From an uncultured cyanobacterium (GTDB lineage: Bacteria; Cyanobacteriota; Cyanobacteriia; Cyanobacteriales; CAWCAG01), in the NCBI GenBank assembly GCA_963803805.1, contig CAWDOD010000001.1:95975-159974 (forward strand): a stretch of 64,000 nucleotides of DNA, in the 5' to 3' direction. How positions within the stretch are numbered: the first letter of the stretch is position 1; each line of letters starts with the position of its first letter. Below, one piece after another: positions 16,514 to 43,545 of this stretch. The notes beneath the pieces were generated by a model. That model ran no database searches. It saw only the letters and a list, made by a program, of their open reading frames with translations, and was not told the origin of the DNA. Made by a program: the position numbers and the translations under genes.

Positions 16514-16627
16514 GGGACTGTGGACTTATACAGTCTTGAAAATATCGCTACAGAGATGATAGGGGAGCAGAAGGTTTCTGTTCGGTTCCGGAATTGTCTC
16601 TGTAGTTTCCTTGCGGAAGCCTATGGA

Positions 16628-25590: not shown

Positions 25591-28500
25591 ATGAGCCGCT
25601 CTGTCTGTATTAAGTCTGAATTCATCGCAAAAGTTAAAAATGCACTTAAGCACAGAAATCTGAGTCAGAAGGCATTGGCAGATCATCTTTTATTTTGTCG
25701 CTCTACAGTGAATAAATTTTGCAATGGCAAAGCAGTAGACCGCAGCAAGGCCCAGGAAATTTGCTTTAGATTAGAATTAGACTTGGAAGAAATAACAGGT
25801 TATTCCCATCCAATACCAGGCATTAAAAGAAGAGTGGACTGGGGAAAGGCAATAGATACGTCTGATCTCTCTGCACGAGAAGAAGAACTAAATGTACTGG
25901 AGCAGAGAATTGTTGAGGATAACTGTAGGGTAGTTCTAATTGAAGGAATGCAAGGGATGGGCAAAACAAATCTCTCCTATCGATTAGGTAAGCAGATCCA
26001 ACAGCATTTTGATTTTATTATTTGGAGATCACTAGATGACTATGCTTCTTCTGAAGAATTATTCGCCGATTTACTTGAATTTTTTACCGCAGGAGAGCCA
26101 GGAGAAGAATCTTTAGTGAGCGACGAAGAAAGTTGGAGAACTTTGACTTCATACTTAAAGAAATATCGTTGCTTGCTAATTTTCCCAAACACTGATTTTT
26201 TCCTACAAGATTACGCCTTACATCAAAGATATGGGAAGTTTGTGAAATGGATGATAGAAGAGCAAGGAAAAAGTTGCCTAATTATAACTAGTGATATTGA
26301 ACCTAAAGAAATCGTTCAATTAAGAGGAAATAAATTTCTTCATTGCATAAAAATAGAGCCGTTAATAGTTTCTGAAATTAAAAAGATTTTTAATGATATT
26401 GGAATTTTTAGTGGTTCTAGTGAAGATTGGATTGCATTGCAGGAAACCTACTCTGGCAATCCATTTGTTCTGAAAAATATAGCAGTTAATATTCATCAAT
26501 CATTTGGCGGAAATATAACTAATTTTATTAATTTTGCTGAAGTCGTTTTTAATGGAGTTGAAAAATTTCTTGACCTTCAAATAGGTTATCTTTCAAAAGA
26601 AGAGGAAACTTTAATGTATTGGTTGGCAATTTATCGACATCCTATAAATTTATTTGAGTTGAATGATATTGTTTCAAGTTTTTCTCGTGATCGCCTTTTA
26701 TCTACTGTCAAAAACCTCCGTCTACGCTTTTTTGTTGAATCTGATGGAGAAAGTATCCTTGTTCAACCACCCATGATTCAGGAGTTTTTCGTTAAACGAT
26801 TAATCAATCAGATTACTGAAGAAATTATTGATGAAAGACTTTCGTTATTAGATGCTTTTCCTTTATTAATTGCAGCTAAAAAAAGAACTGTGCAAAAAGA
26901 TCAAGAGAAATTTATTCTCAAGCCAATAATTGTTCGCCTTAGAAATGAATTAGGCACAGATAGACACGTTGAAACTTGCTTAAGAAAAATTCTTAGCCAG
27001 CATCAGAACTTGATGAATCAGGCTACTGGTTATGCAAATGGAAATATTGTCAATCTACTTACTCAATTAGATATTATTAGTTTCAATGGTCACAACCTCT
27101 CTAACCTAGTTATCAGAAATGCTGATTTCAGAGATGTAAATTTGCATAATGTAGATTTTTATAAGAGCGATCTTTCAGATTCCATTTTCTTGAATTCCTT
27201 TAGTAATGTCTTGTCAGTAGCCTTTAGTCCTGATGGTCAATTTCTAGCAATAGGAGATACAAATGATAATATTTATATCTGGAAATTAACTGAAGGAAAG
27301 CTTATTCTGAAACATATTTTTACCAGCCATAACTATTGGGTAAGAACCGTGGTATTTAGTCCTGATAGTAAGGTTATTGCTAGTGGTGGTGAGGATGGAA
27401 CAATTTATTTGAGAGCAATTGAGACAGGAAAAGAGCTAGTTAATTTTGATGGACATATTGATAGGGTTCGATCAGTAGCCTTCAGTTCAAATGGCCAACT
27501 TCTAGCAAGTGGTGGTGATGACAAAACAGTTAGAATTTGGGATTTAACTCGGAATGAACTTATCCATGTTTTAATAGAACATCAAGACAAAGTTAGATCA
27601 GTCGTTTTTCATCCCGTAGATAATGTCTTAATTAGTTTGAGTCAAGATAACAAAATTTGTTTATGGGCAATTAGCTCTCAATCCGTAAGATTGAAAAAAT
27701 CATTTAAACTTCAAGAAAATGGTAAGAACATCACACGCACACTTGCTATTAGTCCAGATGGAAAAATTTTAGCTAGCGGTAGTGATGATGGTGTAGTACG
27801 TTTTTGGAATCCAGAAACAGGGGCATTTATCAAAAATCTTGAACATCGTCATACTAACTGGATTAGAAGTATTGCTTTTAGTCCCAAAGGAGATCAATTA
27901 GCTAGTGCGGGCGAGGACAGATTAATTTACTTATGGAATGCTATTACAGGTGAATGCCTACATACCTTACGTGGTCATACTGGACGAGTTTGGTCTGTTG
28001 CATTTCATCCCTTTGAATCATGGCTGGCTAGCGGGGATGATAGACTAAAAGTTAAGCTTTGGCACACTGAAACGAGCGAGTGTCTAAGAGGGTTCAAAGG
28101 ATATAGTCAAGAGACAAGACCTATTACGTTTAGTCCTGATGGAGAGAATTTAGCAACTGGTAACAACTATTCGATTGTGGATTTAAAGAATAGTTCGACA
28201 GGAGAAACAAAATCATTTCTCCGGACATATAGTGGAAACATTTGGTCACTTGCATTTAGTCCAGATGCTCATAGGTTGGTAGGAGGAAGCGATGATACAA
28301 TGATTAGAATATGGGATCTTCTCCAGCCAAAAAAACCTCCTGAAACTTTGAAAGGACACGGTAATTGGGTAAGGACAGTTGCCTGTAGTAGAAATGGAAA
28401 ATTGGTTGCAAGCGGTAGTGACGACAAAACTGTGAGGTTGTGGGATGCTTACGATTCTAAGTGCTTGCATACTTTCACTGGACATACCGATTGGGTTCGT

Positions 28501-29100
28501 GCAGTCTTTTTTCATCCTAAAAATTCAGTGTTGGCAAGTGGTAGCGACGATGGAACAGTCAAACTATGGGATCTTGATTCTTATAAGTTAATTGGAACGT
28601 TAAAGGCGAATCAACACCAAATCTGGACGATATCGATTCATCCAGAGAAAGATATACTAGCTAGTGGAAGTAATGACAACACTATCAACATTTGGGATCT
28701 CCAAGAGCAACGGCTACTGATGACTCTTAAAGAGCATCGAAACTGGATTTCATCTCTCGCTTTCAGTGCTGACGGTAGATGGCTAGCAAGCGGGAGTTAT
28801 GACAGCACGATACGTCTTTGGGAGCTTTCATCAGATCAATATATTTGTCGTAAAATCCTCCAAGGACACGGAAAAGCCGTTATTTCAGTATCTTTTCATC
28901 CTAAGCAACCGAGGTTGGTAAGTACTAGTAAAGATGGCAGTATTAAGTTGTGGGATATTGAAACAGGGGATGTATTAGATACCTGGCGCTCATTAAGACC
29001 TTATGAAGGTTTAAACATTACCGAAGTTACTGGTATAACGTCAACCCAAAAATTATGTTTAAAGGCCTTAGGCGCAGTAGAGTGCAAGAGTCCTTTTTAA
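25591..29100 (+). CDS. HTH + NB-ARC/STAND + pentapeptide + WD40 protein
   Basis: XRE-like N-terminus, GMQGMGKT, about 14 WD40 repeats, terminal RPYEGLNIT. Confidence 0.9.
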   Translation: MSRSVCIKSEFIAKVKNALKHRNLSQKALADHLLFCRSTVNKFCNGKAVDRSKAQEICFRLELDLEEITGYSHPIPGIKRRVDWGKAIDTSDLSAREEELNVLEQRIVEDNCRVVLIEGMQGMGKTNLSYRLGKQIQQHFDFIIWRSLDDYASSEELFADLLEFFTAGEPGEESLVSDEESWRTLTSYLKKYRCLLIFPNTDFFLQDYALHQRYGKFVKWMIEEQGKSCLIITSDIEPKEIVQLRGNKFLHCIKIEPLIVSEIKKIFNDIGIFSGSSEDWIALQETYSGNPFVLKNIAVNIHQSFGGNITNFINFAEVVFNGVEKFLDLQIGYLSKEEETLMYWLAIYRHPINLFELNDIVSSFSRDRLLSTVKNLRLRFFVESDGESILVQPPMIQEFFVKRLINQITEEIIDERLSLLDAFPLLIAAKKRTVQKDQEKFILKPIIVRLRNELGTDRHVETCLRKILSQHQNLMNQATGYANGNIVNLLTQLDIISFNGHNLSNLVIRNADFRDVNLHNVDFYKSDLSDSIFLNSFSNVLSVAFSPDGQFLAIGDTNDNIYIWKLTEGKLILKHIFTSHNYWVRTVVFSPDSKVIASGGEDGTIYLRAIETGKELVNFDGHIDRVRSVAFSSNGQLLASGGDDKTVRIWDLTRNELIHVLIEHQDKVRSVVFHPVDNVLISLSQDNKICLWAISSQSVRLKKSFKLQENGKNITRTLAISPDGKILASGSDDGVVRFWNPETGAFIKNLEHRHTNWIRSIAFSPKGDQLASAGEDRLIYLWNAITGECLHTLRGHTGRVWSVAFHPFESWLASGDDRLKVKLWHTETSECLRGFKGYSQETRPITFSPDGENLATGNNYSIVDLKNSSTGETKSFLRTYSGNIWSLAFSPDAHRLVGGSDDTMIRIWDLLQPKKPPETLKGHGNWVRTVACSRNGKLVASGSDDKTVRLWDAYDSKCLHTFTGHTDWVRAVFFHPKNSVLASGSDDGTVKLWDLDSYKLIGTLKANQHQIWTISIHPEKDILASGSNDNTINIWDLQEQRLLMTLKEHRNWISSLAFSADGRWLASGSYDSTIRLWELSSDQYICRKILQGHGKAVISVSFHPKQPRLVSTSKDGSIKLWDIETGDVLDTWRSLRPYEGLNITEVTGITSTQKLCLKALGAVECKSPF

Positions 29101-29170: not shown

Positions 29171-29608
29171 TTACTTTTCAATGTCGTCTACCCAGTTGCA
29201 ATTAGGACAGTTCCACTCATCCTTTGGTAAACAAATTCCACCAAAATCAAAACCACACTCAGGGCAAATTCCAGTGAAGAAGGGATGATTGTTTAAAATA
29301 TCTAACTGCTCTTCTCTGGTGTACTTGGGAGTGTGTAAGATTAACTCGCCATTGTAGTAACTAGCCCCTTGAGGTTCCCATAGTTCATCTGATTTTTCTA
29401 GCTCTGGGTTTGGTTTAAAGTCTGAGCAGCTATTTTCCTCAATGCCATAAGGATGTATGGCGCAAACGATGTGGGGGTTTCTAGAATAAAACAAGCAGCG
29501 ATCGCAATCTGAAATTTTGCCCATTTGAGTATTAAGGTAGATTTTAGAACAAATTCTTTCGGAATTAGTATTGACTAAAAAGGTACAAAAAATGGCTTTT
29601 GTTTCCAA
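29171..29608 (-). CDS. DUF6464-like Cys-rich protein
   Basis: CDRCLFYSRNPHIVCAIHPYG; CPEC...CPNC. Confidence 0.6.
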   Translation of the reverse strand: METKAIFCTFLVNTNSERICSKIYLNTQMGKISDCDRCLFYSRNPHIVCAIHPYGIEENSCSDFKPNPELEKSDELWEPQGASYYNGELILHTPKYTREEQLDILNNHPFFTGICPECGFDFGGICLPKDEWNCPNCNWVDDIEK

Positions 29609-30217
29609 ATATACTTGCTAATGGGAATGTTATCGAGGATTTCAGTGCCATCGACAACACGGAAAACTTTGCCTCTACCTTTTTTGAGAAATTCCTGGGG
29701 CAAGACAAATCTTTCTCGAAACAGGAATATAAGAATAAACAGCTTCCTGCCTTGTCTGAGGGCTGCTTTAGCTTGAATCAAACTACCGCTCGTATCGGAA
29801 GCCTCCACGATCACCGTCGCTTGACATAGTTTTATTGCGCTCTGGGAAAAATCCTCGATTACTTCTGTAATCTCGTTGAGAATAAAAGTAAAAAGGCACT
29901 TGGCTAACGAGAAGATGAGTTTGAGATATTTTCTGTTGCAACTGGCGATTTGAGCGAGGGTAGTACTCATTAAGGGGAGTTCCTATAACTCCTATAGTTC
30001 TACCCCCAGCTTCAAGAGCAGCTAGATGTGCAGCAGTATCTATACCTTCTGCCAAGCCGCTCATAACTGTAATGTTGTTATTAACAAGTAAACGTGCTAA
30101 CTTCTTAGCTCGTCTTAAGCCTTCAGGAGATGCTTTACGGGCCCCCACCACCGAAACAATCTTAGTGTGGAGTAGATCGAGAATTCCTTGATAGTTTAGC
30201 AAAGCTGATTCCTCCAC
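29575..30217 (-). pseudogene. dprA: DprA/SMF protein, frameshifted near 29825
   Basis: VVGAR, SGLAEGIDTAAH, FPERNKTMS in one frame; ATVIVEASDTSGSL in another. Confidence 0.8.
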
Positions 30218-30620: not shown

Positions 30621-31601
30621 ATGGTGGAACGTTTGTTGGGAGAAAACCAAGAGGGGAGTCTCAGGTTAAGGACACCCCTTCCTTTAGCTTGCCACCCAGC
30701 AGAAGTTTATTTAGATAGTTTGGCTCCTGGTTCGAGGACGACCATGAGGCAAGCTCTAAATGCGATCGCGTCCATATTAACCAACGGAGAATGTGATGCC
30801 CTCTCCTTAGATTGGTCGAAATTACGTTATGTCCATACAGCCACAGTTCGGTCTGTACTAGTAAAAAAGAAATTAGCCCCAGCAACCACTAATAAAATGT
30901 TGTGTGCCTTGCGTAGAGTGTTAGGGGAGGCGCAAAAGTTAGACTTAATCTCTAGTAGTGACTATACCAAAGCTATTAGTATTAGTAACGTTAAAGAAGA
31001 CTCCCGGTTGAGGGGACGTTTAATACAGCGTGAAGAAGTAGCCTTACTTTTGGAATTATTAGAAGAAGGGAGAAATAAAAAAGAACCAGGATACGCTCAA
31101 CCCATTGATATTAGGGATATGGCTTTAATTGCCATATTGAGGGGAGGAGGGCTACGGCGTAATGAAGTAGTCAGGTTGGAGTTGAAAGACTTTAACCCCA
31201 GGACAGGAGCAGTGGAAGTGCGCCAGGGTAAGGGGGGTAAAAGTAGAATTGTTTATTTGCCAGAGGTGGCGGTGGAGTTGGTGATTAAATGGTTAGGTAT
31301 TAGAGGGCGTAAGAGTGGGGCTTTGTTATGTCCAGTGGTTAAGGGAGGAAAAATAGTAATTCGCCACATTAGTGCGGATGCGGTGGGTAAGACTTTGCAA
31401 AGATTGGGGAAAAAGGCTGGGTTAGCTTCTTTTTCAGCCCATGATTTTCGGAGGACATTTTGTTCTGAACTGTTGGATTTGGGTGCAGATATAGTGACGG
31501 TGCAGAAGTTAGCAGGTCATGCTTCTCCTGCTACTACAGCGATTTATGACCGTCGGGGGGAAGAGGTGAAGCGTTCTGCTATTCGGAAAATGAAGTTTTA
31601 G
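30621..31601 (+). CDS. Tyrosine recombinase/integrase
   Basis: GLRRNE, KGGK, HDFRRT, LAGH and catalytic Y (AIYD). Confidence 0.93.
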   Translation: MVERLLGENQEGSLRLRTPLPLACHPAEVYLDSLAPGSRTTMRQALNAIASILTNGECDALSLDWSKLRYVHTATVRSVLVKKKLAPATTNKMLCALRRVLGEAQKLDLISSSDYTKAISISNVKEDSRLRGRLIQREEVALLLELLEEGRNKKEPGYAQPIDIRDMALIAILRGGGLRRNEVVRLELKDFNPRTGAVEVRQGKGGKSRIVYLPEVAVELVIKWLGIRGRKSGALLCPVVKGGKIVIRHISADAVGKTLQRLGKKAGLASFSAHDFRRTFCSELLDLGADIVTVQKLAGHASPATTAIYDRRGEEVKRSAIRKMKF

Positions 31602-31740: not shown

Positions 31741-32491
31741 CATGTCTGTTGCCAAAGAATTAGCACCTAAGCAAAATAGCCCAGAAGTAGAGGAACAAAC
31801 CTCATCTGGGGAAACTTGGAGGGAACAGCGAGAAGATGTTATCTTTCCTCCTGGTGACTTGTACAGTGATGAACCCCCCTTGGAAACTGAACTGCATCTA
31901 CGGCAAATAATTATCTTGCTGCAAAGCCTCGAATGGTTATGGAAAGATAGAAACGATTTCTATAGTGCTGGTAATCTTACCATTTACTATAGTCCTAACC
32001 AGAAGAAGTCAGAAGACTTTCGCGGCCCAGACTTTTTCGTAGTTTTGGGAGCAGAAAGGAAAACCAGAAAAAGCTGGGTAGTGTGGGAAGAAAATGGTCA
32101 ATATCCCCATGTGATTGTGGAAATTCTTTCTTCTAGTACCGCGAATATAGATAAGGACTTCAAAAAACAACTTTATCAAAACACCTTCCGCACCCCAGAT
32201 TATTTCTGGTTTGACCCCTACAGCTTAGAATTGGCAGGCTTTCATTTAGTAGATGGAGAATATCAGCCTCTAGAAGCTGATAGCCAAGAGCGCCTGTGGA
32301 GTCAGCAGTTAGGTTTGTATTTGGGAATTGACAACGAGCAGTTACGTTTTTTCACCACGGAAGGGAAGTTAGTTCCTACCCCAGAAGAAACCGCAGAAGA
32401 GTTGGCCACTCAAGCAGAGCAATCGGCGGCTCAAGCAGAAAGATTTGCTGCTAAACTGCGGGAGTTGAATATCGATCCTGATGCCATTTAG
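31718..32491 (+). CDS. Uma2 family (DUF820) endonuclease
   Basis: SDEPPLETELH, GPDFFVV, VEILS, YFWFDP; ATG at 31742 is the likelier start. Confidence 0.9.
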   Translation: MKIDRILAMSVAKELAPKQNSPEVEEQTSSGETWREQREDVIFPPGDLYSDEPPLETELHLRQIIILLQSLEWLWKDRNDFYSAGNLTIYYSPNQKKSEDFRGPDFFVVLGAERKTRKSWVVWEENGQYPHVIVEILSSSTANIDKDFKKQLYQNTFRTPDYFWFDPYSLELAGFHLVDGEYQPLEADSQERLWSQQLGLYLGIDNEQLRFFTTEGKLVPTPEETAEELATQAEQSAAQAERFAAKLRELNIDPDAI

Positions 32492-32900
32492 ATTCACAGT
32501 TATTGGTGCTTCGAGGGGTGGGGTGGCAGCTAATCCAAAACTTTCCATGATTTCCCTAGTAGTTAAGTAGCCGTCATCTTCACCAGTAGGGGTAAGGGCG
32601 ATCGCAACCTGTACTAAAAGTTCTCCTCAAGCTCCTACCAACTCCAAAATCAAACCCTTAACCACATCTGGACACCAATCACTACCTAAAATTTCCAACA
32701 ATAAAGGAGAACTTTGGCTCTCAACCTTATAAATCGCCTTCACTAGGAAAAAAAGACGGGCTTCGCCTATTCGGTAGGGACGGTTGAATTAGATAATAGA
32801 CGATGGATAATGGTTTACAGGGATTGATGAGGCTCTAACGGCAGCGATACGTACCTTCTTTTTCACCATACCCCACACCCCACCCCCTAAACCCTGTCTC

Positions 32901-33212
32901 CTTTTGACCTAACTTTTTTTCTGAATAGCCCTTAAGGTGGAAACAAGGCAAAAATTAAGGTTTTGAAATTGTTAAATCCTTTACTATGACTGAATTATAG
33001 CGGTAATTTTGTGCCAAAAATCTAAGGGGGTCAGGGAATGGCTGAAATGCCTATTCTTTCGTTGACCCCCTTAGATTCATATCCCTGTAAGGGTTTTAGA
33101 GGTTGTAATTTGATTTTATTAGAAACTATTGTCAATTATTTAGGGGTAAATTTGACCCCCTTAGATTTGATGGTTTATAATCTTCTCATACCAAGGCTTT
33201 CATAAGCCGAGG
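32901..33212 (+). promoter_or_regulatory. CRISPR leader 1, homologous to 38414-38725
   Basis: Alignable over about 310 bp; last ~75 bp nearly identical. Confidence 0.8.
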
Positions 33213-33394
33213 GGTTCACCAATTACCTAAATTGGTCTTGTTGGAAACCCGCCTAAGCTAGGAGAAAACCCACCAAGGGTTATATCGGGTTCACCAATTA
33301 CCTAAATTGGTCTTGTTGGAAACATGAACTGGAGAGTAGTTGTTGTCTCAGTCATGATGGTTCACCAATTACCTAAATTGGTCTTGTTGGAAAC
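33213..33394 (+). CRISPR. CRISPR array 1: 3 repeats, 2 spacers
   Basis: (G)GTTCACCAATTACCTAAATTGGTCTTGTTGGAAAC; 35-nt core starts at 33214, 33289, 33360. Confidence 0.95.
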
Positions 33395-33416
33395 CTGAAC
33401 AGTTTGCAGAGATAAA

Positions 33417-33444
33417 AAAGGTTAGAGCTTAAGCTCTAACCTTT
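33417..33444. terminator. Perfect 28-bp palindrome downstream of array 1
   Basis: AAAGGTTAGAGCTTAAGCTCTAACCTTT. Confidence 0.65.
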
Positions 33445-33498
33445 AAGTTTTGCTAACACAAGGGCAAAACAAAAAGCTACCAAAATTAGTAAACTTTA

Positions 33499-33534
33499 GT
33501 TTCCAACAATACCGATTAAAGCTAATCGGTGAAG
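33499..33534 (-). repeat. Single inverted CRISPR-repeat variant
   Basis: Minus strand CTTCACCGATTAGCTTTAATCGGTATTGTTGGAAAC; stem preserved by a compensatory change. Confidence 0.8.
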
Positions 33535-33673
33535 CTAGTAATACACCAGACTTGAATTAATCAAAAAAATGTTTTTTCAGTAATTCCTTAATCTAGTGCA
33601 GAACTTACACATAACTGTAGGGGAAATGAACCGAACAAAACAGGTCATTTTGACCTTGATTTTTTCTGTTTAG

Positions 33674-33994
33674 TTATTTACTAACTTTCTCTTTCTCCTG
33701 GCAAAGAATTTCTAAAAGTTCATCAGGAATCTCTTCAAAATGCTCAAGTAGGAAATCCATGAATGCTAAATTCCTCAAATCATGGGGTTGGGGACGACGG
33801 TAATAATGATTCCTTTTGAACCATCTTTGTACAGTAGAGTAGGAACGGGAACAGATTTGAGCCATTTGCTCATAAGTAACTGACCACTTGAGATAAAACC
33901 TTTGGGGAGATAAACCCAACTCGCAATTAGCATAAAGCCTAATTAAATCTAGCTCTCGCTCACCTAAAGAATCTGACATAATATTACTCCACAA
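33674..33994 (-). CDS. Small HTH protein
   Basis: VTYEQMAQICSRSYSTVQRWF. Confidence 0.7.
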   Translation of the reverse strand: MWSNIMSDSLGERELDLIRLYANCELGLSPQRFYLKWSVTYEQMAQICSRSYSTVQRWFKRNHYYRRPQPHDLRNLAFMDFLLEHFEEIPDELLEILCQEKEKVSK

Positions 33995-34301
33995 CTGCTT
34001 CTAAATCTTCTTCCCAAGCAAAATCAAACTGACACCAGGAATAGCTAAAGGAACTGCTATCTAAAACAATTAAATAACACCAACTCCAACTTTTAAGATG
34101 TCGAGAATAAGTGTAAAAAACTCCTGCAATTACTCCCCAATCAAAACAATCATCAAGGGGTAGCCAGCGTACCTTAACCCCATAAACAAACTTGGGTTTC
34201 TTAACTTTTGACCAGTCAATATCTGTCAGTGGTTGCAATTTTGCTAAAGGTAGTAACTGAACCACTGATTGGGTATTTTGTCTCAGCATATCCTCTCCCA
34301 T
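33984..34301 (-). CDS. Hypothetical protein (DUF1392/SH3-like), translationally coupled to cas2
   Basis: PKFVYGVKVRW...WGVIAG...WCYLIVL; start overlaps the cas2 stop. Confidence 0.5.
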   Translation of the reverse strand: MGEDMLRQNTQSVVQLLPLAKLQPLTDIDWSKVKKPKFVYGVKVRWLPLDDCFDWGVIAGVFYTYSRHLKSWSWCYLIVLDSSSFSYSWCQFDFAWEEDLEAVVE

Positions 34302-34579
34302 CAGGCGAAAAAAACTTCATCATCAATGGCATAATCTGGTTTAATTCCTAGTACAGTAACTTTATGGCGACAAGGTTGGGAAAGGGGATAAAATCTCAAC
34401 TGATCCTCCTTGGCATTTAATAACTTACTGAGCCTTGGTAATAGCTTCTTGTACTGGCGTGGATTCAAAACCAGTTCAAACACAGACTTTTGCACTCGCA
34501 AACCGTAAGCTTCCAATAATTTGGATACCCTAGTACGGCGACGGTCATCTACAATGTCATAGCAAACTAAGTAAAACAT
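34301..34579 (-). CDS. cas2: CRISPR-associated Cas2
   Basis: YLVCYDIVDDRRR...RVQKSVFE...DQLRFYPL. Confidence 0.95.
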   Translation of the reverse strand: MFYLVCYDIVDDRRRTRVSKLLEAYGLRVQKSVFELVLNPRQYKKLLPRLSKLLNAKEDQLRFYPLSQPCRHKVTVLGIKPDYAIDDEVFFA

Positions 34580-34583
34580 TAGA

Positions 34584-34616
34584 TAGGTAATAGGTAATAA
34601 GTAATAGGTAATAGGT
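34584..34616. repeat. Heptamer tandem repeat (STRR-like)
   Basis: TAGGTAA x4.7. Confidence 0.7.
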
Positions 34617-34653
34617 GTTACAGCTATTACCTATTTTCTGTCTTGAATTCCTG

Positions 34654-35649
34654 TTAACAATTAGGAAAATTAGTGTGGCATAACATGGGACGATAAAAAT
34701 CTCTGATGCCCACAATGCAAGCTAAATACTCCTTAACCTGTAACTCAATGCAACGGCGATAGGTAACTTTTCCTGCCCGTAAATGCTTCACAGGAGTATC
34801 TAATTTAGCTTCCCAAGCTTTAATGAATTTCCGCAAAGGTAGGGGATAAAGATGGATTTCTCCCTCTTCATCAGGCAAGGTAAAATCAGAGCAATTAATA
34901 ATGCGATCGCTAGTTAATTGAAGAACAAAAGAATCAACAAAAATTGCCCCTAACTCCAGCATTAAATCAGCAACTAAAGGTAAGGTATATTCCACCTCAT
35001 TATGAAAGTTGCTAATATTAGGGTCGAGTCCCACCTGCTCTAAGCAAGTCCTGATTTTGTCCCCTAAAAAGATGTAGCCTAGGTTTAATAAACAAGCTAA
35101 TTGCTGGCTAACTTCATCTTGGTGATAGGTCTTTAACCAGTCTGGAGGCAGCAAACTATCTAAAGCTGTAAAGTAGATTTCATCGGCTTTTTCTTCTAAC
35201 TTAGTAAAGGTATGAAAACCTTTAACCAGAGGCAAATTGTCCTCAATTTTCTTGAGTATGCAAACAGCTTTCTCTACAGATGCTTGATGATTATTTAATT
35301 GCTTAAGTAAATTAGAGCGATTATGACAACTAGCCCTTAAAATACTTTCGGTGGTTTCCCAAGTAAACTCATGGTTTTGGCAATATCGTAACTGCTTTTG
35401 CTGATGCTTGATAGTAGCTTGCCCAGGACTATGATAGGGCTTTTCTTGTTCGAGGAAGAGCAGAGGAATATTGAGAGAGCGTACCAATTTGAGGGCTTCT
35501 TGAGAAATATTAGTATAGCCAAAGAGAACGATTTCTTCGACTTTAGCAATAGCTACTTGGTAAGAAAAGCTGCGATTAGGGAAGACATGAAAGTTGGTTT
35601 TGTCTGCCTTTAATAAAGCTCCTGGTTCAGGAATATAGAGAGTAGTCAT
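34654..35649 (-). CDS. cas1: Degenerate Cas1 paralog
   Basis: MTTLYIPEPG, IVLFG, LLNLGY, NFH, LVADLMLE; aligns with the Cas1 domain of RT-Cas1. Confidence 0.85.
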   Translation of the reverse strand: MTTLYIPEPGALLKADKTNFHVFPNRSFSYQVAIAKVEEIVLFGYTNISQEALKLVRSLNIPLLFLEQEKPYHSPGQATIKHQQKQLRYCQNHEFTWETTESILRASCHNRSNLLKQLNNHQASVEKAVCILKKIEDNLPLVKGFHTFTKLEEKADEIYFTALDSLLPPDWLKTYHQDEVSQQLACLLNLGYIFLGDKIRTCLEQVGLDPNISNFHNEVEYTLPLVADLMLELGAIFVDSFVLQLTSDRIINCSDFTLPDEEGEIHLYPLPLRKFIKAWEAKLDTPVKHLRAGKVTYRRCIELQVKEYLACIVGIRDFYRPMLCHTNFPNC

Positions 35650-35822
35650 GTTCTAAAAAAGATAAACAAGTAATAAGTAAAAGCCTGTATTTGTCCAGAT
35701 AACTTGTTAGTTTTTTCTGAGATTTGACTTTTAACTTGCTTCCATCTTTTCAGTGGCTATATGAGTACTTGTATGAGTAAAAATGGAAAAGTATGAGTTG
35801 ATATATGAGTTTTATATGACTT

Positions 35823-35852
35823 AAAAAAAAGCTAGAGAATTAATCTCTAGCT
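35823..35852 (-). terminator. Intrinsic terminator after the wHTH gene
   Basis: AGCTAGAGA-N5-TCTCTAGCT with a T8 tract on the minus strand. Confidence 0.7.
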
Positions 35853-35858
35853 GGAGGG

Positions 35859-36152
35859 CTATTGTTTTTGGTAATTTAGCCGTTTGAGCATCTTTTTGCC
35901 CTTACTTTTGCTAATTCGGAAGCTGAGTTTACCGTTTTTGCTGCTACGTTGAACAACTCGAATAAAGCCTTCATCTTCCAAACCTAACAAGTGATGACTA
36001 AGCCGAGATATATCACCTCCTCGTAAATGACTTAAAGCGCATAATTGAGCTTTAGTAATCCCAGGTTGAGTTGCGATCGCTAGGAAAAGAATTTTCCTAA
36101 CTCCGGAAAGAGGTTTCCGCAAGGGATGACCTCGGTGCGACAACAATTTCAT
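35859..36152 (-). CDS. Winged-HTH (MarR/ArsR-like) regulator
   Basis: ILFLAIATQPGITKAQL...SRLSHHLLGLEDEGFIRV...FRISKSKG. Confidence 0.7.
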   Translation of the reverse strand: MKLLSHRGHPLRKPLSGVRKILFLAIATQPGITKAQLCALSHLRGGDISRLSHHLLGLEDEGFIRVVQRSSKNGKLSFRISKSKGKKMLKRLNYQKQ

Positions 36153-36332
36153 GGTTGCACCGAGGTATATGAGTATCTGTATGAGAAGATTTGTCTGACT
36201 AAATACATTCCTAGCTCATAGGAAAGTTAAATCGTTTTGGAACAACTCATACAACCCCTCAAGAAAAGTCATACAAGTACTCATATAGCCCCTGAAAACA
36301 TGGAAGAGAAGTAAATTCAAGGGGTAAATAGG

Positions 36333-38309
36333 ATGCAAATTGAACCAATAGAACTGATAACAGCTTGGCAACAAGTGCGTAATCGTAGTCCGGCGGCGGG
36401 GGTAGATGGTATTACCTTAGATTTGTTTGCGGGGGTAGCCAAAGAACAACTAAGAAACTTAAAACGAGAACTGGAACGGGAATACTACCAAGCCAGTCCT
36501 GCTAAAGGTTTTTACTTAAAGAAAAAGAGCGGAGGTCAACGTTTAATTGGTATTCCCACAGTACGCGATCGCGTGGTACAAAGATTGACCCTCCAATCAA
36601 TTTACCCCACCTTAGAAACGGAATTTCCCACCCATAGTTATGGCTACCGTCCAGGGCATTCTGTACAAATGGCCATAGAACATTTCTCGGAATATTACCG
36701 AGAAAGACCCACTTGGGTAATCAAAGCAGATATTGCTCAGTTCTTCGATAGCCTTATTTGGGCCATTTTGCTCGAAAGTCTCGAAGATATTGCTATAGAG
36801 CAGTTTTGGGAACAGCTTATTGCCGGGCAATTGCAGGCGGGAATAAGGTTGCAAGGGCAGTGGTTTAACCCTGGTAAAGGAGTATTACAAGGAGGCATTT
36901 TATCAGGTGCTTTAGCAAACCTTTACCTCAGTGAGTTTGACCGTTACTGTGCTGATTTTGGTATCCAAATTGTGCGCTATGGGGATGATTTTGTCATTGC
37001 CACTGGAGGTTTATTAGAAGCTACAAGGGTTTTAGCCCAAGTGAGTCAGTGGTTGGAGGATATTTACCTAACCCTACAACCAGAGAAAACCCAGATTTTT
37101 GCCCCTAGTGAGGAGTTTGTTTTCCTGGGCTATAGGTTTCAGGGGGGAGAAATTATTCCCCCTCCCTCTAAAAGTCGTAGCACCTCAGCTAAACCCAAAC
37201 AAAGACCAGCACCAGAATCCAGACCCCCCAAAGCCTGTAGCATCCTCAAACCTTCTTCCTACCACCATCAAGTCAACCAAGATTTTTACTGGAGTGATTC
37301 TATGACTACTCTTTATGTGACTGAACAGGGAGCCTATCTCAAGGTACGACACCAACAGTTTCAGGTTTTCCACCACCAGGAATTACGCATTACTGTTCCC
37401 GTGAATCGGGTGAGCCATATTGTTCTCTTTGGCTGTTGTAATCTTTCCCACGGGGCAGTGCAACTGGCCCTGAAACGACGTATTCCGGTGATGTATCTTT
37501 CCCACCAAGGACGTTACTTCGGCCGTTTACAAACCGATGGCATGGCAGAAATTGATTACCTCCTATTGCAAATGCAGCGTCATCAAGAACCAGCTTTTCA
37601 ACGTCGGCAGGCAGAAGTTATAGTTATGGCTAAACTGCACAATTCCCGTAAGCTGTTACTACGGATGAATCGGGGCAAAAAGATTACTAAGGTGAATAAA
37701 GCCGTTAATAAAATTGCCCAGATTATTGATAAGCTACCCTCCGCTAAATCTGTTGAGAGTTTGTTAGGTTATGAAGGGCAAAGCGCCCATTTATACTACC
37801 AAGCTTTAGGAATGCTTTTTAATGGTAAGTTTGCCTTCGAGAAGCGTACCCGCCGTCCTCCCACCGACCCCATTAATAGTCTGCTCAGTTTGGGTTATAC
37901 TCTGTTGCACCAAAATGTTTTTTCTTTGGTACAGGCAGTAGGTTTACATACCCATTTTGGTAATCTCCATACCCCCCGTCGTAATCATCCGGCTTTAGTT
38001 TCTGATTTAATCGAGGAGTTTCGCGCCCCAGTGGTGGATTCTTTCATTGCTTACTTGGTTAATTCCAAGATTTTCAAGCAAGGGGATTTTACTCCAGCAG
38101 ACGGAAGGGGTGGGGTTTATCTTCATCCTGGTTCTTTGCGGAAGTATCTTAAGCATTGGCAAGAGAAGTTACAGACTCAGGTTACTCACCCCCATACAGG
38201 TTATAAGGTGAGTTATTACCGTTGTTTGGAGTTACAGGTTTGGGAGTATATTGCTTGTTTGAAGGGAGAGCAGGAGGTTTATCGGCCGATGATGTGGAAG
38301 ATCAAATAG
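36333..38309 (+). CDS. cas1: Reverse transcriptase-Cas1 fusion
   Basis: RT motifs AGVDG, GIPTVRDR, ADIAQFFD, QGG, RYGDD; Cas1 motifs GYEG, RRPPTDPIN, GNLH, SDLIEEFR. Confidence 0.95.
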   Translation: MQIEPIELITAWQQVRNRSPAAGVDGITLDLFAGVAKEQLRNLKRELEREYYQASPAKGFYLKKKSGGQRLIGIPTVRDRVVQRLTLQSIYPTLETEFPTHSYGYRPGHSVQMAIEHFSEYYRERPTWVIKADIAQFFDSLIWAILLESLEDIAIEQFWEQLIAGQLQAGIRLQGQWFNPGKGVLQGGILSGALANLYLSEFDRYCADFGIQIVRYGDDFVIATGGLLEATRVLAQVSQWLEDIYLTLQPEKTQIFAPSEEFVFLGYRFQGGEIIPPPSKSRSTSAKPKQRPAPESRPPKACSILKPSSYHHQVNQDFYWSDSMTTLYVTEQGAYLKVRHQQFQVFHHQELRITVPVNRVSHIVLFGCCNLSHGAVQLALKRRIPVMYLSHQGRYFGRLQTDGMAEIDYLLLQMQRHQEPAFQRRQAEVIVMAKLHNSRKLLLRMNRGKKITKVNKAVNKIAQIIDKLPSAKSVESLLGYEGQSAHLYYQALGMLFNGKFAFEKRTRRPPTDPINSLLSLGYTLLHQNVFSLVQAVGLHTHFGNLHTPRRNHPALVSDLIEEFRAPVVDSFIAYLVNSKIFKQGDFTPADGRGGVYLHPGSLRKYLKHWQEKLQTQVTHPHTGYKVSYYRCLELQVWEYIACLKGEQEVYRPMMWKIK

Positions 38310-38413
38310 GAATGAGGAATGCGCCAAGCTTTTTAAGCTTTGAGCAGTTGGCTTTTGAGTAACTTTTCCTTACACCTTTTTCAGCACAAAGCTGTTGTAA
38401 AAAGTCAAGTTCG

Positions 38414-38725
38414 TTTTGACCTAACTTTTTTCCTGAATAGTTCCTAAACTGGAAACAAGGCAAAAATCACGGTTTTATAATTGCCAAATCACTTGCTCTG
38501 CATAACTTTTAGCTTGAAAAATCTTCTTGAGATCCGTAGGGGTCACCGAATGGCTGAAACCCTTATTCTTTCGTAGACCCCTGCGGATCTACTTCTGTGT
38601 AAGGGGTCTAGAGCTTATGAACAAGTGTTTATTAGTAAGAATTCTCAACTATTTGGGGGTAAATTTGACCCCCTCGGATTTGATGGTTTATAATCTCCTT
38701 ATACCAAGGCTTTCATAAGCCAAGG
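38414..38725 (+). promoter_or_regulatory. CRISPR leader 2
   Basis: Homologous to leader 1. Confidence 0.8.
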
Positions 38726-39170
38726 GGTTCACCAATTACCTAAATTGGTCTTGTTGGAAACACCTAAACCCCCCATTACTTTGTCAACATTGTTCAAGGT
38801 TCACCAATTACCTAAATTGGTCTTGTTGGAAACCAATATCATCTGACTTTTCATCCATAAACTTACTTGCTGGTTCACCAATTACCTAAATTGGTCTTGT
38901 TGGAAACAGTAAGCATGGAGTGGCGTCAATGCCTACGCAAACCCGGTTCACCAATTACCTAAATTGGTCTTGTTGGAAACCTTCACTAGGGGTTTTTCCA
39001 GTGCCTTCAAATGGGTTCACCAATTACCTAAATTGGTCTTGTTGGAAACCGGTGTAGTCGAAAAGAGAGAGACTAATCATCATAAGAAGTTCACCAATTA
39101 CCTAAATTGGTCTTGTTGGAAACCACTTTAAAAACAAGGCGGTCAAAAAGCCCAAAAAGGGTTCACCAAT
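38726..39170 (+). CRISPR. CRISPR array 2: 6 full repeats, 6 spacers, 7th repeat cut by ISAs1
   Basis: Cores at 38727, 38799, 38873, 38946, 39015, 39089; partial GTTCACCAAT at 39161. Confidence 0.96.
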
Positions 39171-40422
39171 CAGGGCGAACGCATCTAAATAGAGTGAAAA
39201 GCGCGAAAGTAAGAAACAAAGAAGTAGATTAGTACAACAACGCCAGAAATCTGAGAATCTACTGCAATGAAACTAAAACCGAAAATCACACTAATAGACC
39301 ACTTCACAGAATTAACAGACCCAAGGGTAGAGCGAACAAAAGAACATAAGCTAATAGATATAGTGGTGATAGGGATTTGTGCAGTAATCTGTGGAGCAGA
39401 CACCTGGGTGGGAATAGAAACCTATGGCAAAGCAAAATACCAATGGTTAAAGCAGTTCTTGGAGCTAGCAAATGGAATACCATCTCATGATACTTTTTCA
39501 AGGGTGTTTGCTCGTATAGACCCAAAGGAATTTCAAGGCTGTTTTCTGAGTTGGGTAAAATCAATCAGCAAGTTGATTCCATCGGAAGTTATCAGCATAG
39601 ATGGTAAAACTCTGAGACATTCTGAGGACAAAGGAAGTAACAAAAGAGCAATTCATTTGGTAAGTGCCTGGGCAAGTTCTCAAAGATTAGTACTGGGACA
39701 ACAGAAAGTAGAGGAAAAGTCCAATGAAATTACCGCAATACCTGAGTTACTAAAGGTCTTGGAAATATCAGGATGTATAGTCACAATTGATGCGATGGGA
39801 ACTCAGAAAAAAATTGCCCAACTAATCATTTCTCAAGAAGCTGACTATTGCCTGGCCCTAAAAGGCAATCAAGGAAACATCCATGAAGATGTCAAGCAAT
39901 TATTTACTCAAGCCCAAGCTCAACAATGGCAAAATATCGACCATAACTTCTTTGAGACGGTAGAGAAAGGTCATGGGCGTGTTGAGATTCGCCGTTATTG
40001 GACAATGGCCAATGTGGAATTTTTAATTGATAGTGAGCAATGGGTTGGACTTAAGAGTATTGGTATGGTTGAATCAAAGCGGACTTTTGCAGGAGAAACT
40101 ACCTCGGAAATTCGCTACTATCTCAATAGTTTTCCTTCTGATGCCCAAATGTTTGCCCATGCTGTTCGTAGTCACTGGGGAGTGGAAAATTGCCTTCATT
40201 GGGTCTTAGATGTTGCCTTTAGGGAGGATGATTGTCCTATTCGTAAAGATAATGCTCCTGAAAATTTTGCTTTACTACGCCACATTGCTCTCAATCTTCT
40301 TTCCCAGGAGAAAACTGCCTCTATGGGAGTTCAGAACAAGCGTCTTCAAGCTGCTTGGGATGATGACTATCTTGCCAGAGTTTTGAGAATTTGACCTTTT
40401 ATTTTTAGATGCGTTTGCCCTG
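39171..40422 (+). mobile_element. ISAs1-family insertion sequence
   Basis: IRs CAGGGCGAACGCATCTAAA and TTTAGATGCGTTTGCCCTG (1 mismatch). Confidence 0.92.
39267..40394 (+). CDS. ISAs1 transposase
   Basis: DPR, IPSHDTF, IDGKTLR, KSNEI, TIDAMG, HWGVEN. Confidence 0.95.
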   Translation: MKLKPKITLIDHFTELTDPRVERTKEHKLIDIVVIGICAVICGADTWVGIETYGKAKYQWLKQFLELANGIPSHDTFSRVFARIDPKEFQGCFLSWVKSISKLIPSEVISIDGKTLRHSEDKGSNKRAIHLVSAWASSQRLVLGQQKVEEKSNEITAIPELLKVLEISGCIVTIDAMGTQKKIAQLIISQEADYCLALKGNQGNIHEDVKQLFTQAQAQQWQNIDHNFFETVEKGHGRVEIRRYWTMANVEFLIDSEQWVGLKSIGMVESKRTFAGETTSEIRYYLNSFPSDAQMFAHAVRSHWGVENCLHWVLDVAFREDDCPIRKDNAPENFALLRHIALNLLSQEKTASMGVQNKRLQAAWDDDYLARVLRI

Positions 40423-41527: not shown

Positions 41528-41887
41528 CTAGTCATTATTAGGAAAAGTGCATTTAACCTCAATAGCAACATTACTTTCTGCCGAACCTTCAGTGATGTAA
41601 GGAATACCAGCTTTACCGCCAATCTTCAAACCAAAAGAAATTTTAACTTCCTCAACATTTGCAGCACTAAAATTTCTAAAGGCACTAATCACATAAGTTG
41701 CGTAACCTCGAATCATCCTGGCAGCTTTTTTCATCTCAACAGTTCTACTGTTTCCTCCCCGGCCTGGACGACCATCACCCTCATCATCTTTAGGAAAATC
41801 TACTGATTTAGTTTCAATAAAAATTTCGTACTCTTCACCCTTATCGTCAGTGTAGGTAAGCTTTTGAATTTGGGAAGGTTCAGGCAT
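41528..41887 (-). CDS. CU044_2847/Trypco-like peptidase co-occurring protein
   Basis: VEEVKISFGLKIGGKAGIPYITEGSAESNVAIEV; divergent from the caspase gene. Confidence 0.75.
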   Translation of the reverse strand: MPEPSQIQKLTYTDDKGEEYEIFIETKSVDFPKDDEGDGRPGRGGNSRTVEMKKAARMIRGYATYVISAFRNFSAANVEEVKISFGLKIGGKAGIPYITEGSAESNVAIEVKCTFPNND

Positions 41888-41966
41888 AATGAAAACTCTC
41901 CTGACAAGAATAATGACTGTTTGCTAAGATTCTACAATCTATTGTTACAAAAGCTATTGCTCCCAG

Positions 41967-43529
41967 ATGGCTAAACGCTATGCTTTAGTAGTTGCGATTT
42001 CAAAGTATGAACACTTACGTCCTCTGGAGAATGTGATCAGAGATGGAAAAGCTATTGCCCAGAAATTAGACGATCATGGTTTTGGAGTAACAAAATATCC
42101 TCCAAAATGGATTGAAAAAGAATATCGCGAAGAACTTAAGTCATCTTTGGTATCTACTGAAGATTTATTACGCGAAATAGAGGAGTTTCTTTTTGATACA
42201 GCCCAAAACAGTGAAGCTCTAATCTACTTAGCTGGTCATGGTTTAAGAGTAAAAGGTTGCTCTCAGAGAATCCCTCCCAAAGCCTACTTTGCTGTTTCTG
42301 ATAGTCGCAGCGATGGTAGAAATGCCATCCCTTTTACAGACCTCAATACCCTTTTTGCTCAAGCTCGTAGTGAAGCTCATTTAAGCAGCTTAGTAGTTTT
42401 GCTAGATTGCTGTCATGCAGGTATGGCTTTTGAGGGAACCGTTGAAAGAGAAATATTCCAATCTAGTTTTACAGCCTTTCAGAACCAACCTAGCTACGGA
42501 ATTTTGGCATCTTGCCGTGGTCATCAAGAGTCTTATGAATTGGGGGAACATGGCTTATTTACCAGCAAAGTACTTGAAGGGCTGAAGCCAGGGAATGCTG
42601 ATGAGAATGGCGTAATTTCTTTTAATCGCCTTGCCGATTACGTTAACCTGAAGCTGCAAAATATGGGTCAAGAATCGGTTGATTTAGCTTTTAAGGGTTC
42701 GGCAATTCAATTGGTAAGTTACTCAAAGGAATTAATCTCAGACATAACAGGAACAGCTCAAAATAGTTTCATCCAAGCTCTACAGGAACTAAATTATGCA
42801 GGTGAAGATAAACTATTTACAGATTTTCTTGAGGTAGAATCACCATCCTTGCCAGTAGGTGCGTTTTGGATACGTGCTGAAGAGGGTGGTGGTCAGCGCT
42901 GGTTAATAAACCGCCTCTGGCAAAAGAAAGTCCCTTTCTACCCTCAAGCTATTAAATATCCCTTCTTCATCAATAAAAGGTGGACAATCAACACAATCTG
43001 GGAAAAAGTAGGAGCTACTTTAGCCGTAGGAACTGAACCAGAAGAGATTGTCGAAGAACTGTACAACTTTTGGGTCAAACCTAATACGGTAGCTTTAGCC
43101 TTATACGGAGTAGAACGTTTGACGAAGGCTGATTTAGAAGAGCTATTCATCTCCTTTTGGCGACCCTTAACCCAAAAAGCTGCTCAGCAAAGTAATTCAG
43201 ACCTACCTTTGCTACTATTTTTAATTGACACTGGTATTAAAGATAACTGTGATTGCTGTTTAGAGCATCTCCAAGAATATGACTGCGATCGCCCTTGGCT
43301 ACCCGTTGAATTCCCTTTAAAGCCTTTTAGGAGAAAAAGCTTAGTTAACTGGGCCAACGCTCACCACCAAATAATTCAACCTTTGTTGAGAAACTGCTCA
43401 TCAATGCAAGAATTTAATCAGCAGCTCGAAAGTTGTAACCGTCGCGAGGATCTATGTCCAGAAGACGTGCTAGAAAAAATTTGTCAACTTTGTGGCCAAG
43501 AGCATTTTGAAATAACTTTCAACATTTGA
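41967..43529 (+). CDS. Caspase-like (C14) peptidase fused to an inactive-STAND-like domain
   Basis: YALVVAISKY; catalytic dyad LAGHG and LDCCHAG. Confidence 0.85.
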   Translation: MAKRYALVVAISKYEHLRPLENVIRDGKAIAQKLDDHGFGVTKYPPKWIEKEYREELKSSLVSTEDLLREIEEFLFDTAQNSEALIYLAGHGLRVKGCSQRIPPKAYFAVSDSRSDGRNAIPFTDLNTLFAQARSEAHLSSLVVLLDCCHAGMAFEGTVEREIFQSSFTAFQNQPSYGILASCRGHQESYELGEHGLFTSKVLEGLKPGNADENGVISFNRLADYVNLKLQNMGQESVDLAFKGSAIQLVSYSKELISDITGTAQNSFIQALQELNYAGEDKLFTDFLEVESPSLPVGAFWIRAEEGGGQRWLINRLWQKKVPFYPQAIKYPFFINKRWTINTIWEKVGATLAVGTEPEEIVEELYNFWVKPNTVALALYGVERLTKADLEELFISFWRPLTQKAAQQSNSDLPLLLFLIDTGIKDNCDCCLEHLQEYDCDRPWLPVEFPLKPFRRKSLVNWANAHHQIIQPLLRNCSSMQEFNQQLESCNRREDLCPEDVLEKICQLCGQEHFEITFNI

Positions 43530-43545
43530 GGATTAACTTAGCATC

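Follow-up and report, generated by a model that had tools for sequence, protein, structure and literature searches.

Dedicated control of CRISPR adaptation genes has been described in archaea. In Sulfolobus islandicus, the gene of Csa3a, a MarR-like CARF regulator, stands next to the type I-A genes csa1-cas1-cas2-cas4, and the protein is reported to bind the csa1 and cas1 promoters at an imperfect palindrome and to trigger spacer uptake (PMC4333418; PMC10013973). Here we describe a locus found in 64,000 nucleotides of DNA from an uncultured cyanobacterium (contig CAWDOD010000001.1; this whole stretch is hereafter called the window). It carries a gene for a reverse transcriptase (RT) fused to Cas1 (RT-cas1), a second, stand-alone and divergent cas1 gene (cas1') and, between the two, a gene for a small winged helix-turn-helix (wHTH) protein. 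All three are preceded by copies of one short box, set out as a phased array. A first-pass annotation of the window had proposed that the wHTH protein regulates both cas1 operons and its own gene.

In cyanobacteria, CvkR is described as a MerR-type repressor of type V-K CRISPR-associated transposons (CASTs; PMC9938897), and the promoter of the Synechocystis type III-Dv system is described as controlled by RpaB through HLR1, a site made of two octamers 2 nt apart (10.1101/2023.12.07.570523; 10.1101/443713). A cyanobacterial branch of RT-Cas1 has been documented (PMC5513706), and RT-Cas1 fusions accompanied by a more distant second cas1 make up the "RT-CRISPR-3" clade of Toro et al. 2017 (PMC5541045). 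Csx18 is the name given to small adaptation-associated proteins of cyanobacterial type III loci, of unknown function (PMC6546367; 10.1101/2020.04.14.041012; 10.64898/2025.12.20.695498). In culture, the uptake of spacers from RNA by RT-Cas1 systems is difficult to observe. A search of the literature, with subscription journals mostly outside its coverage, found no description of the box motif, of a regulator of an RT-Cas1 module or of the wHTH family, in agreement with the first-pass annotation, which had not recognised a described CRISPR regulator here.

The best explanation overall, to which we assign a probability of roughly 0.6, is that a phased operator array lies in the core promoters of RT-cas1, of the operon cas1'-cas2-o105-o106 and of the wHTH gene, and that a sequence-specific binder would switch these units together.

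A cluster of boxes in front of the adaptation genes

Exact TATGAG occurs 31 times on the two strands of the window, a number close to the shuffle mean of 32.68, so that there is no overall enrichment. Nine of these sites fall between 35760 and 36285, a span of 526 bp in which 0.25 would be expected (Poisson probability of at least nine sites, about 1e-11). On the + strand they start at 35760, 35772, 35792, 35804, 36168 and 36180; the three - strand sites are those at 36215, 36246 and 36280. The cluster reported by the first-pass annotation is thus real, with one correction to its list: two of the boxes, at 35815 and 36268, are TATGAC variants. The spacing that it gave, mostly 12 bp within pairs, holds for four pairs (35760/35772, 35792/35804, 36168/36180 and 36268/36280), and a fifth pair (35804/35815) is 11 bp apart. 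An 18-mer, TATGAGTANNTGTATGAG, searched with up to 3 mismatches, has five matches in the window, four of which are in the locus; 0.57 would be expected, and none of 100 shuffled sequences reached five. Table 1 gives the resulting box groups. A position weight matrix (PWM) was built from the window's 11 boxes alone, and its ten best matches in the window all fall in the locus, as is to be expected by construction.

Conservation of the boxes at related loci

The PWM was applied to a comparison set of 21 other loci (319,516 bases; cited below as L001 to L021), among which plasmid loci were fetched via tblastn with o106, o105 and cas1'. Two matches of at least 7 bits on one strand, 11-13 bp apart, were counted as a box pair. 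By this rule the set contains 13 pairs: three each in L002, L009 and L015, two in L016 and one each in L004 and L017. Every one of them lies no more than 250 nt upstream of RT-cas1, cas1' or a wHTH gene and points towards that gene. A first-order Markov model predicts about 0.5 pairs in total in the first 17 loci; 60 PWMs with permuted columns gave 1.63 pairs on average and 9 at most, none reaching 13. Outside adaptation promoters, no box pair was found in the roughly 384 kb formed by the window and the 21 loci. The best PWM matches in L002, from a metagenome-assembled genome (MAG) of Symploca, and in L004, from a Planktothrix MAG, stand upstream of cas1', RT-cas1 and wHTH genes, and seven promoters from these two loci and the window can be aligned.

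Further loci carry the array in other spellings. The Gloeothece loci (L007, L013) have AACTCAG units in the 3+2 layout of the main form, and the Anabaena cylindrica locus (L008) has CTTATA/GTTATA units, again laid out as in the main form; both were recognised by eye. The motif search at homologous RT-Cas1 loci that the first-pass annotation had called for therefore finds the motif conserved, with box arrays in 10 of the 11 modules that have this type of RT-Cas1. L014 alone has none, and IS630 family transposase genes stand there immediately upstream of cas1'. Counted by promoter, arrays precede RT-cas1 or cas1' in 15 of 18 cases; they are missing at the RT-cas1 of L008, at the RT-deleted gene of L002, and in L014. 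Each locus uses one box variant at both promoters, and the variants track RT-Cas1 clades. The array is spread over Nostocales, Oscillatoriales, Coleofasciculales and Pseudanabaenales, with a variant form in Chroococcales; a Microcystis locus in which RT and cas1 are separate genes (L021) has no box array. A blastn search of all plasmids with the 76-nt L002 promoter returned no match at E<=1, the query being too short and too divergent for blastn. These results support the view that the boxes are a real, conserved cis element common to both cas1 promoters and the wHTH promoter.

The RT-deleted gene of Symploca (L002, 3792-4983) is a homologue of RT-cas1 that keeps a Cas1 domain 71% identical to that of the window, and its RT part is reduced to a remnant matching RT residues 60-125.

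Array architecture and proposed mechanism

Read towards the downstream gene, the unit common to 47 boxes in 15 promoters is AA[C/G]T[C/T]ATATAcaa, with an invariant core T-ATA preceded by C/G-T-C/T. Conservation extends to flanks that lie beyond the search pattern (AA, 37/47 and 42/47; TA, 34/47 and 41/47). The 32 gaps between neighbouring boxes measure 11-13 bp (16 gaps), 20-22 bp (8), 31-33 bp (4) or some other length (4). In a typical promoter, 2-3 distal units are spaced at 12 bp, and a phase-keeping gap of about 21 or 33 bp separates them from a proximal pair. The final unit of this pair overlaps a TATA(G/A/C)C stretch, after which comes CTGA(A/G)A. We take TATA(G/A/C)C and CTGA(A/G)A as a putative -10 and start region.

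Box-to-box distances of 12 bp, and of about 21 or 33 bp, correspond to helical phasing, and the reader of the boxes is therefore likely to be a DNA-binding protein, or a protein oligomer, placed on one face of duplex DNA. The array can with good confidence be regarded as a functional protein-binding cis element, and its positions speak well for shared transcriptional control of both integrase operons and the wHTH gene. In the proposed mechanism, a sequence-specific protein would bind the array co-operatively along one helix face, and the bound protein would switch the RT-cas1, cas1'-cas2-o105-o106 and wHTH units together. RT-Cas1 would have to use the single Cas2 encoded in the divergent operon; joint switching would make sense because RT-Cas1, having no cas2 of its own, shares that Cas2. 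As to the sign of control, repression by occlusion is favoured by the overlap between box and putative -10. A consensus scan of 35550-36450, which includes both spacers, found no canonical sigma-70-like promoter, so that activation is also possible.

Three points weigh against phased operators in core promoters. The -10 was assigned by eye, and the T that usually ends such an element is missing from TATAGC; the RT-cas1 of L008 has no array; and every one of the 18 box pairs (5 in the window and 13 in other loci) is oriented in the sense of the gene that it precedes, as would also suit a role in the transcript.

A conserved ATG is found about 15 nt past the last box in many promoters (window, L007, L013, L009, L002, L008 and L016), with a stop after 1-6 codons. 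It opens 4 codons in both window copies (36299-36313, and 35734-35748 on the - strand) and in Gloeothece, and is reduced to ATG-TAA in L002, L008 and L016. It may represent a mini-ORF (open reading frame) or a start-stop element, or simply belong to the DNA motif.

Candidate readers of the array

Whichever protein binds, membership of the wHTH gene in the box regulon appears well supported. What the first-pass annotation said of joint control of both cas1 operons and the wHTH gene gains from the shared, conserved cis element; the role of regulator that it gave to the wHTH protein is weakened by the distribution of the gene and by relatives that have no boxes. That this protein binds the boxes in the window and regulates its own gene is a tentative assignment: the likeliest single one for the window, although still rather improbable taken by itself, and about level with the one made below for o106.

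Its position between the promoters and its winged-helix fold speak for the wHTH protein as binder, and in both cases where it forms a separate transcription unit (window and L002) it carries a box pair of its own. An AlphaFold2 model, computed from a 9-sequence alignment with a pLDDT (predicted local distance difference test) score of 79.9, has helices at 17-28, 34-43 and 48-60, strands at 64-69 and 76-80 and a last helix at 84-96, that is, the three-helix bundle, recognition helix and beta-hairpin wing of the MarR/ArsR-type fold. Foldseek matches in the PDB are FabT (6jbx), MarR (3bpv), YgaV (3cuo) and SlyA (1lj9), with E from 2.7e-4 to 1e-3 and TMq from 0.55 to 0.67. Judged from its model, the 97-residue protein is a MarR/ArsR-like winged helix, as the first-pass annotation had guessed. 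By sequence it falls outside the MarR family (Pfam MarR_2: E 0.079 and 13.6 bits, where the cut-off is 27); it has no NCBIfam match, and PDB sequence searches gave nothing better than E 0.04.

The family is very small. HMMER, run exhaustively over 1.84 billion representatives, returned 9 matches; 36 proteins were retrieved when 5.8 billion clusters were searched with a profile, and all the named ones among them are cyanobacterial. No fused or longer form (306-2000 residues) was found, in a search that is weak as evidence. With PADLOC, residues 47-73 weakly match the C-terminal HTH part of CARF-HTH models (CARF3, E 0.0012), a lead and not a result. A profile scan of genome contigs, based on a 5-sequence alignment, located relatives at five loci (L002-L006). 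In L002, the wHTH gene is flanked by a CRISPR array and by cas1'-cas2; in L004, it has cas2 on one side and an o106 homologue on the other and is downstream of RT-cas1 and cas1'. In a Nostocaceae MAG (L003) and in Geminocystis (L005), the relative stands amid housekeeping or transporter genes, and the match in L006 is weak and probably unrelated. A Nostoc plasmid (L001) carries a more remote relative, which has no CRISPR link.

Several observations count against the wHTH protein as reader. It is encoded in only 3 of the 11 modules and is absent from the 8 other box-bearing or related ones. A tblastn search of all plasmid records matched one unrelated Nostoc record only, that of L001, and a profile search of L001-L009 found no wHTH gene in the plasmid-borne modules L007-L009. 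In a tree of Cas1 domains, the window groups with L002, L009 and L017 (support 97/94), with L004 outside; L009 and L017 have ACTCATA boxes but no wHTH gene, and the gene is scattered over the RT-Cas1 tree. The relatives away from CRISPR loci (L001, L003, L005) have no box pairs. Dimers of the MarR/ArsR type usually bind inverted, not direct, repeats.

Two further observations concern the wHTH gene itself. The terminator that the first-pass annotation had assigned to it corresponds to a terminator-like hairpin ending in a T run (Table 1). A second hairpin encloses its start codon; the half-site of this hairpin occurs in the window only at its two arms and was not seen at the wHTH genes of other loci, which rules it out as a conserved operator. 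A comparison by hhalign (probability 0.8%) led us to reject the idea that the wHTH protein is a diverged version of the small ORF found after cas2 in the Nostoc and Gloeothece loci.

With about the same modest probability, o106, a helix-turn-helix protein encoded by the last gene of the cas1'-cas2 operon, may be the binder throughout the clade. It would then control itself through the promoter of that operon, and the wHTH gene would be one more output of that regulon with a task of its own, such as controlling other genes or the CRISPR leader. o106 is present in 10 of the 11 modules, and 9 of these 10 have box arrays; its helix-turn-helix stretch is strongly conserved in alignment. Its placement by the Atlas in cyanobacterial clusters named "helix-turn-helix domain-containing protein" (scores 0.97-0.98) is a lead only. 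Against this, o106 is missing from L017, which has four boxes (best hidden Markov model match there, E 3.1), and no Pseudanabaena record is among its 21 tblastn matches. Six relatives of similar identity occur on plasmids in non-CRISPR contexts without box pairs, and the recognition-helix sequence is the same in L015, with ACTCATA boxes, as in L016 and L008, with ACTTATA boxes, which argues against co-variation. Compared by eye, the recognition helices showed no clear signal of co-variation with the box variants, whether for o106 (10 loci) or for wHTH (3 loci). Its Pfam HTH_23 match is below cut-off and its structure model is unreliable (pLDDT 56.4).

On cyanobacterial plasmids, o106 was found in 21 records and its partner o105 in 8; o105 is present in 5 of the 11 modules. 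o106 belongs to an overlapping o105-o106 pair at L010-L012 and stands alone at L018-L020. Many of its plasmid sites are remote from CRISPR loci and lie by replication, conjugation or other defence genes, so that the family is not CRISPR-specific.

Next in order, and doubtful, comes a regulator whose gene lies elsewhere in the genome. It could be a cyanobacterial host factor or an alternative sigma factor, and the HTH proteins of the module would be uninvolved. Such a factor would account for L017, where boxes occur with neither wHTH nor o106, and would suit both the conservation of the array across several cyanobacterial orders and the lack of a canonical sigma-70-like promoter in the region scanned. 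Binding to 12-bp direct repeats (CTA-N9-CTA) has, moreover, been proposed for Synechocystis LexA in vitro (PMC3091678). The boxes depart from CTA-N9-CTA, however, except in L004, and the confinement of box pairs to adaptation promoters means that any host regulon would be very small. Box variants differ among loci and agree within a locus; together with the absence of pairs elsewhere, this fits a dedicated, module-encoded partner better than a global factor. NtcA and Anabaena LexA were set aside as readers, since the boxes, compared by eye, do not fit their consensus sequences.

It is improbable that the repeats act in the transcript, as RNA-binding sites in a 5' leader or through a short upstream ORF or leader control, or that they are promoter-intrinsic elements with no dedicated binder. 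The uniform sense orientation of the pairs and the conserved ATG with its early stop would suit such a role, and by eye an AT-rich stretch upstream of the boxes in L007 and L013 could hold a promoter. The strict spacing (28 of the 32 gaps near 12, 21 or 33 bp) points instead to phasing on duplex DNA. Moreover, the first box of the cas1' array lies 10 bp past the wHTH terminator, which leaves no room for an upstream promoter. An Rfam search (E<=1) of 32400-39400 gave three chance-level matches only, none of them in either spacer.

There remains the mirrored arrangement of the locus. The first-pass annotation had noted that a 38-bp element precedes both cas1 genes with 36 of 38 positions identical, a figure confirmed by recounting; the longer mirrored arms (35730-35776 and 36269-36315) are complementary at 41 of 47 positions. 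This 47-nt inverted repeat is a by-product of two homologous promoters in divergent orientation and follows the orientation of the genes, because the same promoter elements stand direct in the co-directional loci L002 and L004. That it would instead bound a 0.5-kb invertible segment flipping the wHTH gene as a phase switch, the alternative raised in the first-pass annotation, is scarcely credible: the repeat does flank 492 bp with one gene and a tyrosine recombinase gene is found at 30621-31601, but the latter, the nearest recombinase, is 4 kb off, on the far side of the left CRISPR array and next to a Uma2 gene, no recombinase adjoins the arrays in any related locus, flipping would swap near-identical promoter halves with little effect, and the arms are promoter/operator sequences whose direct orientation in L002 and L004 departs from invertible promoter switches of the fim/hin type.

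The adaptation module and its surroundings

The box locus is held in a self-contained CRISPR adaptation module with the gene order array–o106–o105–cas2–cas1'–wHTH–RT-cas1–leader–array–IS (insertion sequence) transposase (Table 1). Having an RT-Cas1 fusion, a divergent cas1, a cas2 and a CRISPR array, it is a cyanobacterial adaptation module of the kind that combines RT-Cas1 with a second Cas1. This architecture of RT-cas1 plus a second cas1 recurs in L004, L008, L009, L015 and L016. The cas1' product is 34.7% identical to the Cas1 domain of RT-Cas1. No cas2 lies behind RT-cas1: a 63-aa ORF there has no family match, and this region shows homology to the left array's leader. Among the ORFs scanned (7373-44529), no type III effector gene was found.

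Table 1. Positions of the features discussed (window coordinates, unless a locus is named).
Feature	Position	Strand	Remarks
Left CRISPR array, 3 copies of a 36-nt repeat	33213..33394	+	Leader on left side, about 32899-33212
o106, HTH protein of ~100 aa, last gene of cas1'-cas2 operon	33674..33994	-	Pfam HTH_23 E 3.8e-4, under curated cut-off
o105, small ORF overlapping and paired with o106	33984..34301	-	Without family match
cas2	34301..34579	-	Pfam CRISPR_Cas2 1.6e-24; TIGR01573 1.2e-19; sole cas2 found by the two integrase genes
cas1' (stand-alone divergent cas1)	34654..35649	-	Pfam Cas_Cas1 2.3e-42
Left copy of 38-bp mirrored element	35739..35776	-	Proximal box pair and TATAGC...CTGAAAA..ATGGAAG core; aligns with L002 and L004 promoters
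Box array upstream of cas1', 5 boxes (35760, 35772, 35792, 35804, 35815)	35757..35825	-	All towards cas1'; gaps 11, 12, 20, 12 bp
Intrinsic-terminator-like hairpin after wHTH gene	35830..35852	-	9-bp stem, 5-nt loop, T run
wHTH gene, 97 aa	35859..36152	-	Between cas1' and RT-cas1; 209-bp spacer to cas1', 180-bp spacer to RT-cas1
13-nt inverted repeat/hairpin, wHTH start codon in loop	36129..36166	-	92% pairing; RNA fold -21.3 kcal/mol, z -2.97, 0/200 shuffles as good
Box pair directly upstream of wHTH start	36165..36188	-	Towards wHTH; 89% match to proximal pair of RT-cas1 promoter
Box array upstream of RT-cas1, 4 boxes (36215, 36246, 36268, 36280)	36212..36288	+	All towards RT-cas1; gaps 31, 22, 12 bp
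Right copy of 38-bp mirrored element	36269..36306	+	36/38 identical to left copy
RT-cas1 fusion, 658 aa	36333..38309	+	RVT_1 2e-35, Cas_Cas1 1.6e-88; TIGR04416, TIGR00287; PADLOC Cas1_IIIb 1.3e-95
Leader (38411 to about 38725), then 6-repeat right CRISPR array (38726-39123)	38411..39123	+	Followed by IS transposase gene 39267-40394
Small ORF after cas2, other loci	L007 9674-9982; L008 12581-12841; L013 7037-7345; L014 16363-16632; L015 16799-17068; L016 13848-14099		

The two CRISPR arrays have an identical repeat, and their leaders are homologous (74% over 516 nt, repeats included). A leader of about 315 nt is common to both and contains a promoter-like stretch, TTGATGGTTTATAAT. Both arrays have the same orientation, and the left one consequently points away from the cas1'-cas2 operon. 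An inverted, degenerate copy of the repeat lies at about 33500-33536. In the short spacer between cas1' and cas2, the heptamer ATAGGTA is repeated in tandem 4.9 times (34583-34616).

The surroundings resemble a defence and mobile-element island (13386-17839, 25591-29100, 41528-44529), with a group-2-like sigma factor gene, a dcm methyltransferase gene and TnpB, as well as a 1169-aa WD40 protein and a Trypco1 / caspase-iSTAND / AAA ATPase set. A STAND, CHAT or DUF4384-type gene occurs near RT-cas1 in 9 of the 11 related loci. A DprA-like gene (DNA_processg_A) is split over two overlapping ORFs (29783-30217 and 29575-29970) and is probably frameshifted. Further away, a 39-nt tandem repeat (6.4 copies, 91% matches) lies at 52741-52991, inside the ORF 51661-53535.

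A small ORF directly follows cas2 at 6 of the 11 loci, in Nostoc, Anabaena and Gloeothece modules, and is absent from the window. It looks RelE/ParE-like by eye and may be the Csx18 of the literature. As for Csx18 itself (slr7091 / Cyan10605_3521), no Synechocystis is among the organisms listed for the plasmid tblastn searches with wHTH, o105 and o106.

Implications for the control of spacer acquisition

We see a fair-sized possibility, short of an even chance, that the cyanobacterial RT-Cas1 clade possesses a dedicated, module-encoded switch for spacer acquisition, in which one small HTH protein (wHTH or o106) would read the 12-bp phased array and couple RT-Cas1 to the Cas1' with which it shares one Cas2. 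If true, type III / RT-Cas1 systems would thereby gain their first adaptation-specific regulator, a counterpart to Csa3a without the CARF domain. The layout would also explain how two Cas1 proteins relying on one Cas2 stay in step. An operator common to both integrase operons offers a concrete handle: the array is usable as bait for the regulator, and mutation of the array or removal of the binder should unlock acquisition. For annotation, tandem AACTCATATACA units 12 bp apart may serve as a signature of adaptation promoters in cyanobacterial plasmids and defence islands.

Comparison with known systems

The wHTH protein resembles the MarR and ArsR-SmtB repressors in its fold, its small size, the position of its own promoter beside presumed targets and a layout that is likely autoregulatory. 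Its sequence similarity is below the family cut-offs, its candidate sites are direct and not inverted repeats, and, unlike MarR, it has no long dimerisation helices at its N and C termini, just a single additional helix at 84-96.

Among cyanobacterial regulators, CvkR is similarly described as a small regulator encoded inside a CRISPR-related module. It differs by its MerR fold and by its target, a CAST, and is not known to be linked to cas1 or RT-cas1 or to use phased direct repeats. The HLR1/RpaB pair offers a second parallel, with direct-repeat sites at a cyanobacterial CRISPR promoter and a reader, RpaB, described as a winged-helix protein. The consensus octamer of HLR1 is (G/T)TTACA(T/A)(T/A). 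HLR1 has a period of 10 bp and serves a global response regulator, whereas the boxes here have a period of 12 bp, a CTCATA core and up to 5 units, and stand at adaptation genes only; compared by eye with the consensus, they are not HLR1 sites, since both period and core differ. The module itself is close to the "RT-CRISPR-3" clade, to which the RT of the window is likened by architecture and not by tree; in the accessible part of the clade's description, no regulator or promoter element is mentioned (PMC5541045).

Csa3a is the closest parallel in function. In both cases, a regulator-type gene stands beside the adaptation genes on the opposite strand, and Csa3a, too, is described as MarR-like. 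The wHTH protein is linked to such a class of adaptation regulators by its position, by its own box pair and by co-occurrence in 3 of the 11 modules, that is, by association only. It is not a member of the Csa3 (CARF-wHTH) family, being a single domain of 97 residues, whereas Csa3a has a CARF sensor domain. The sites differ as well, an imperfect palindrome for Csa3a and phased 12-bp direct repeats here, and so do the hosts and systems, archaeal and type I-A in one case, cyanobacterial with RT-Cas1 in the other. By analogy, the array would thus represent a Csa3a-like, dedicated control of adaptation genes, achieved through a different cis architecture and without a CARF sensor.

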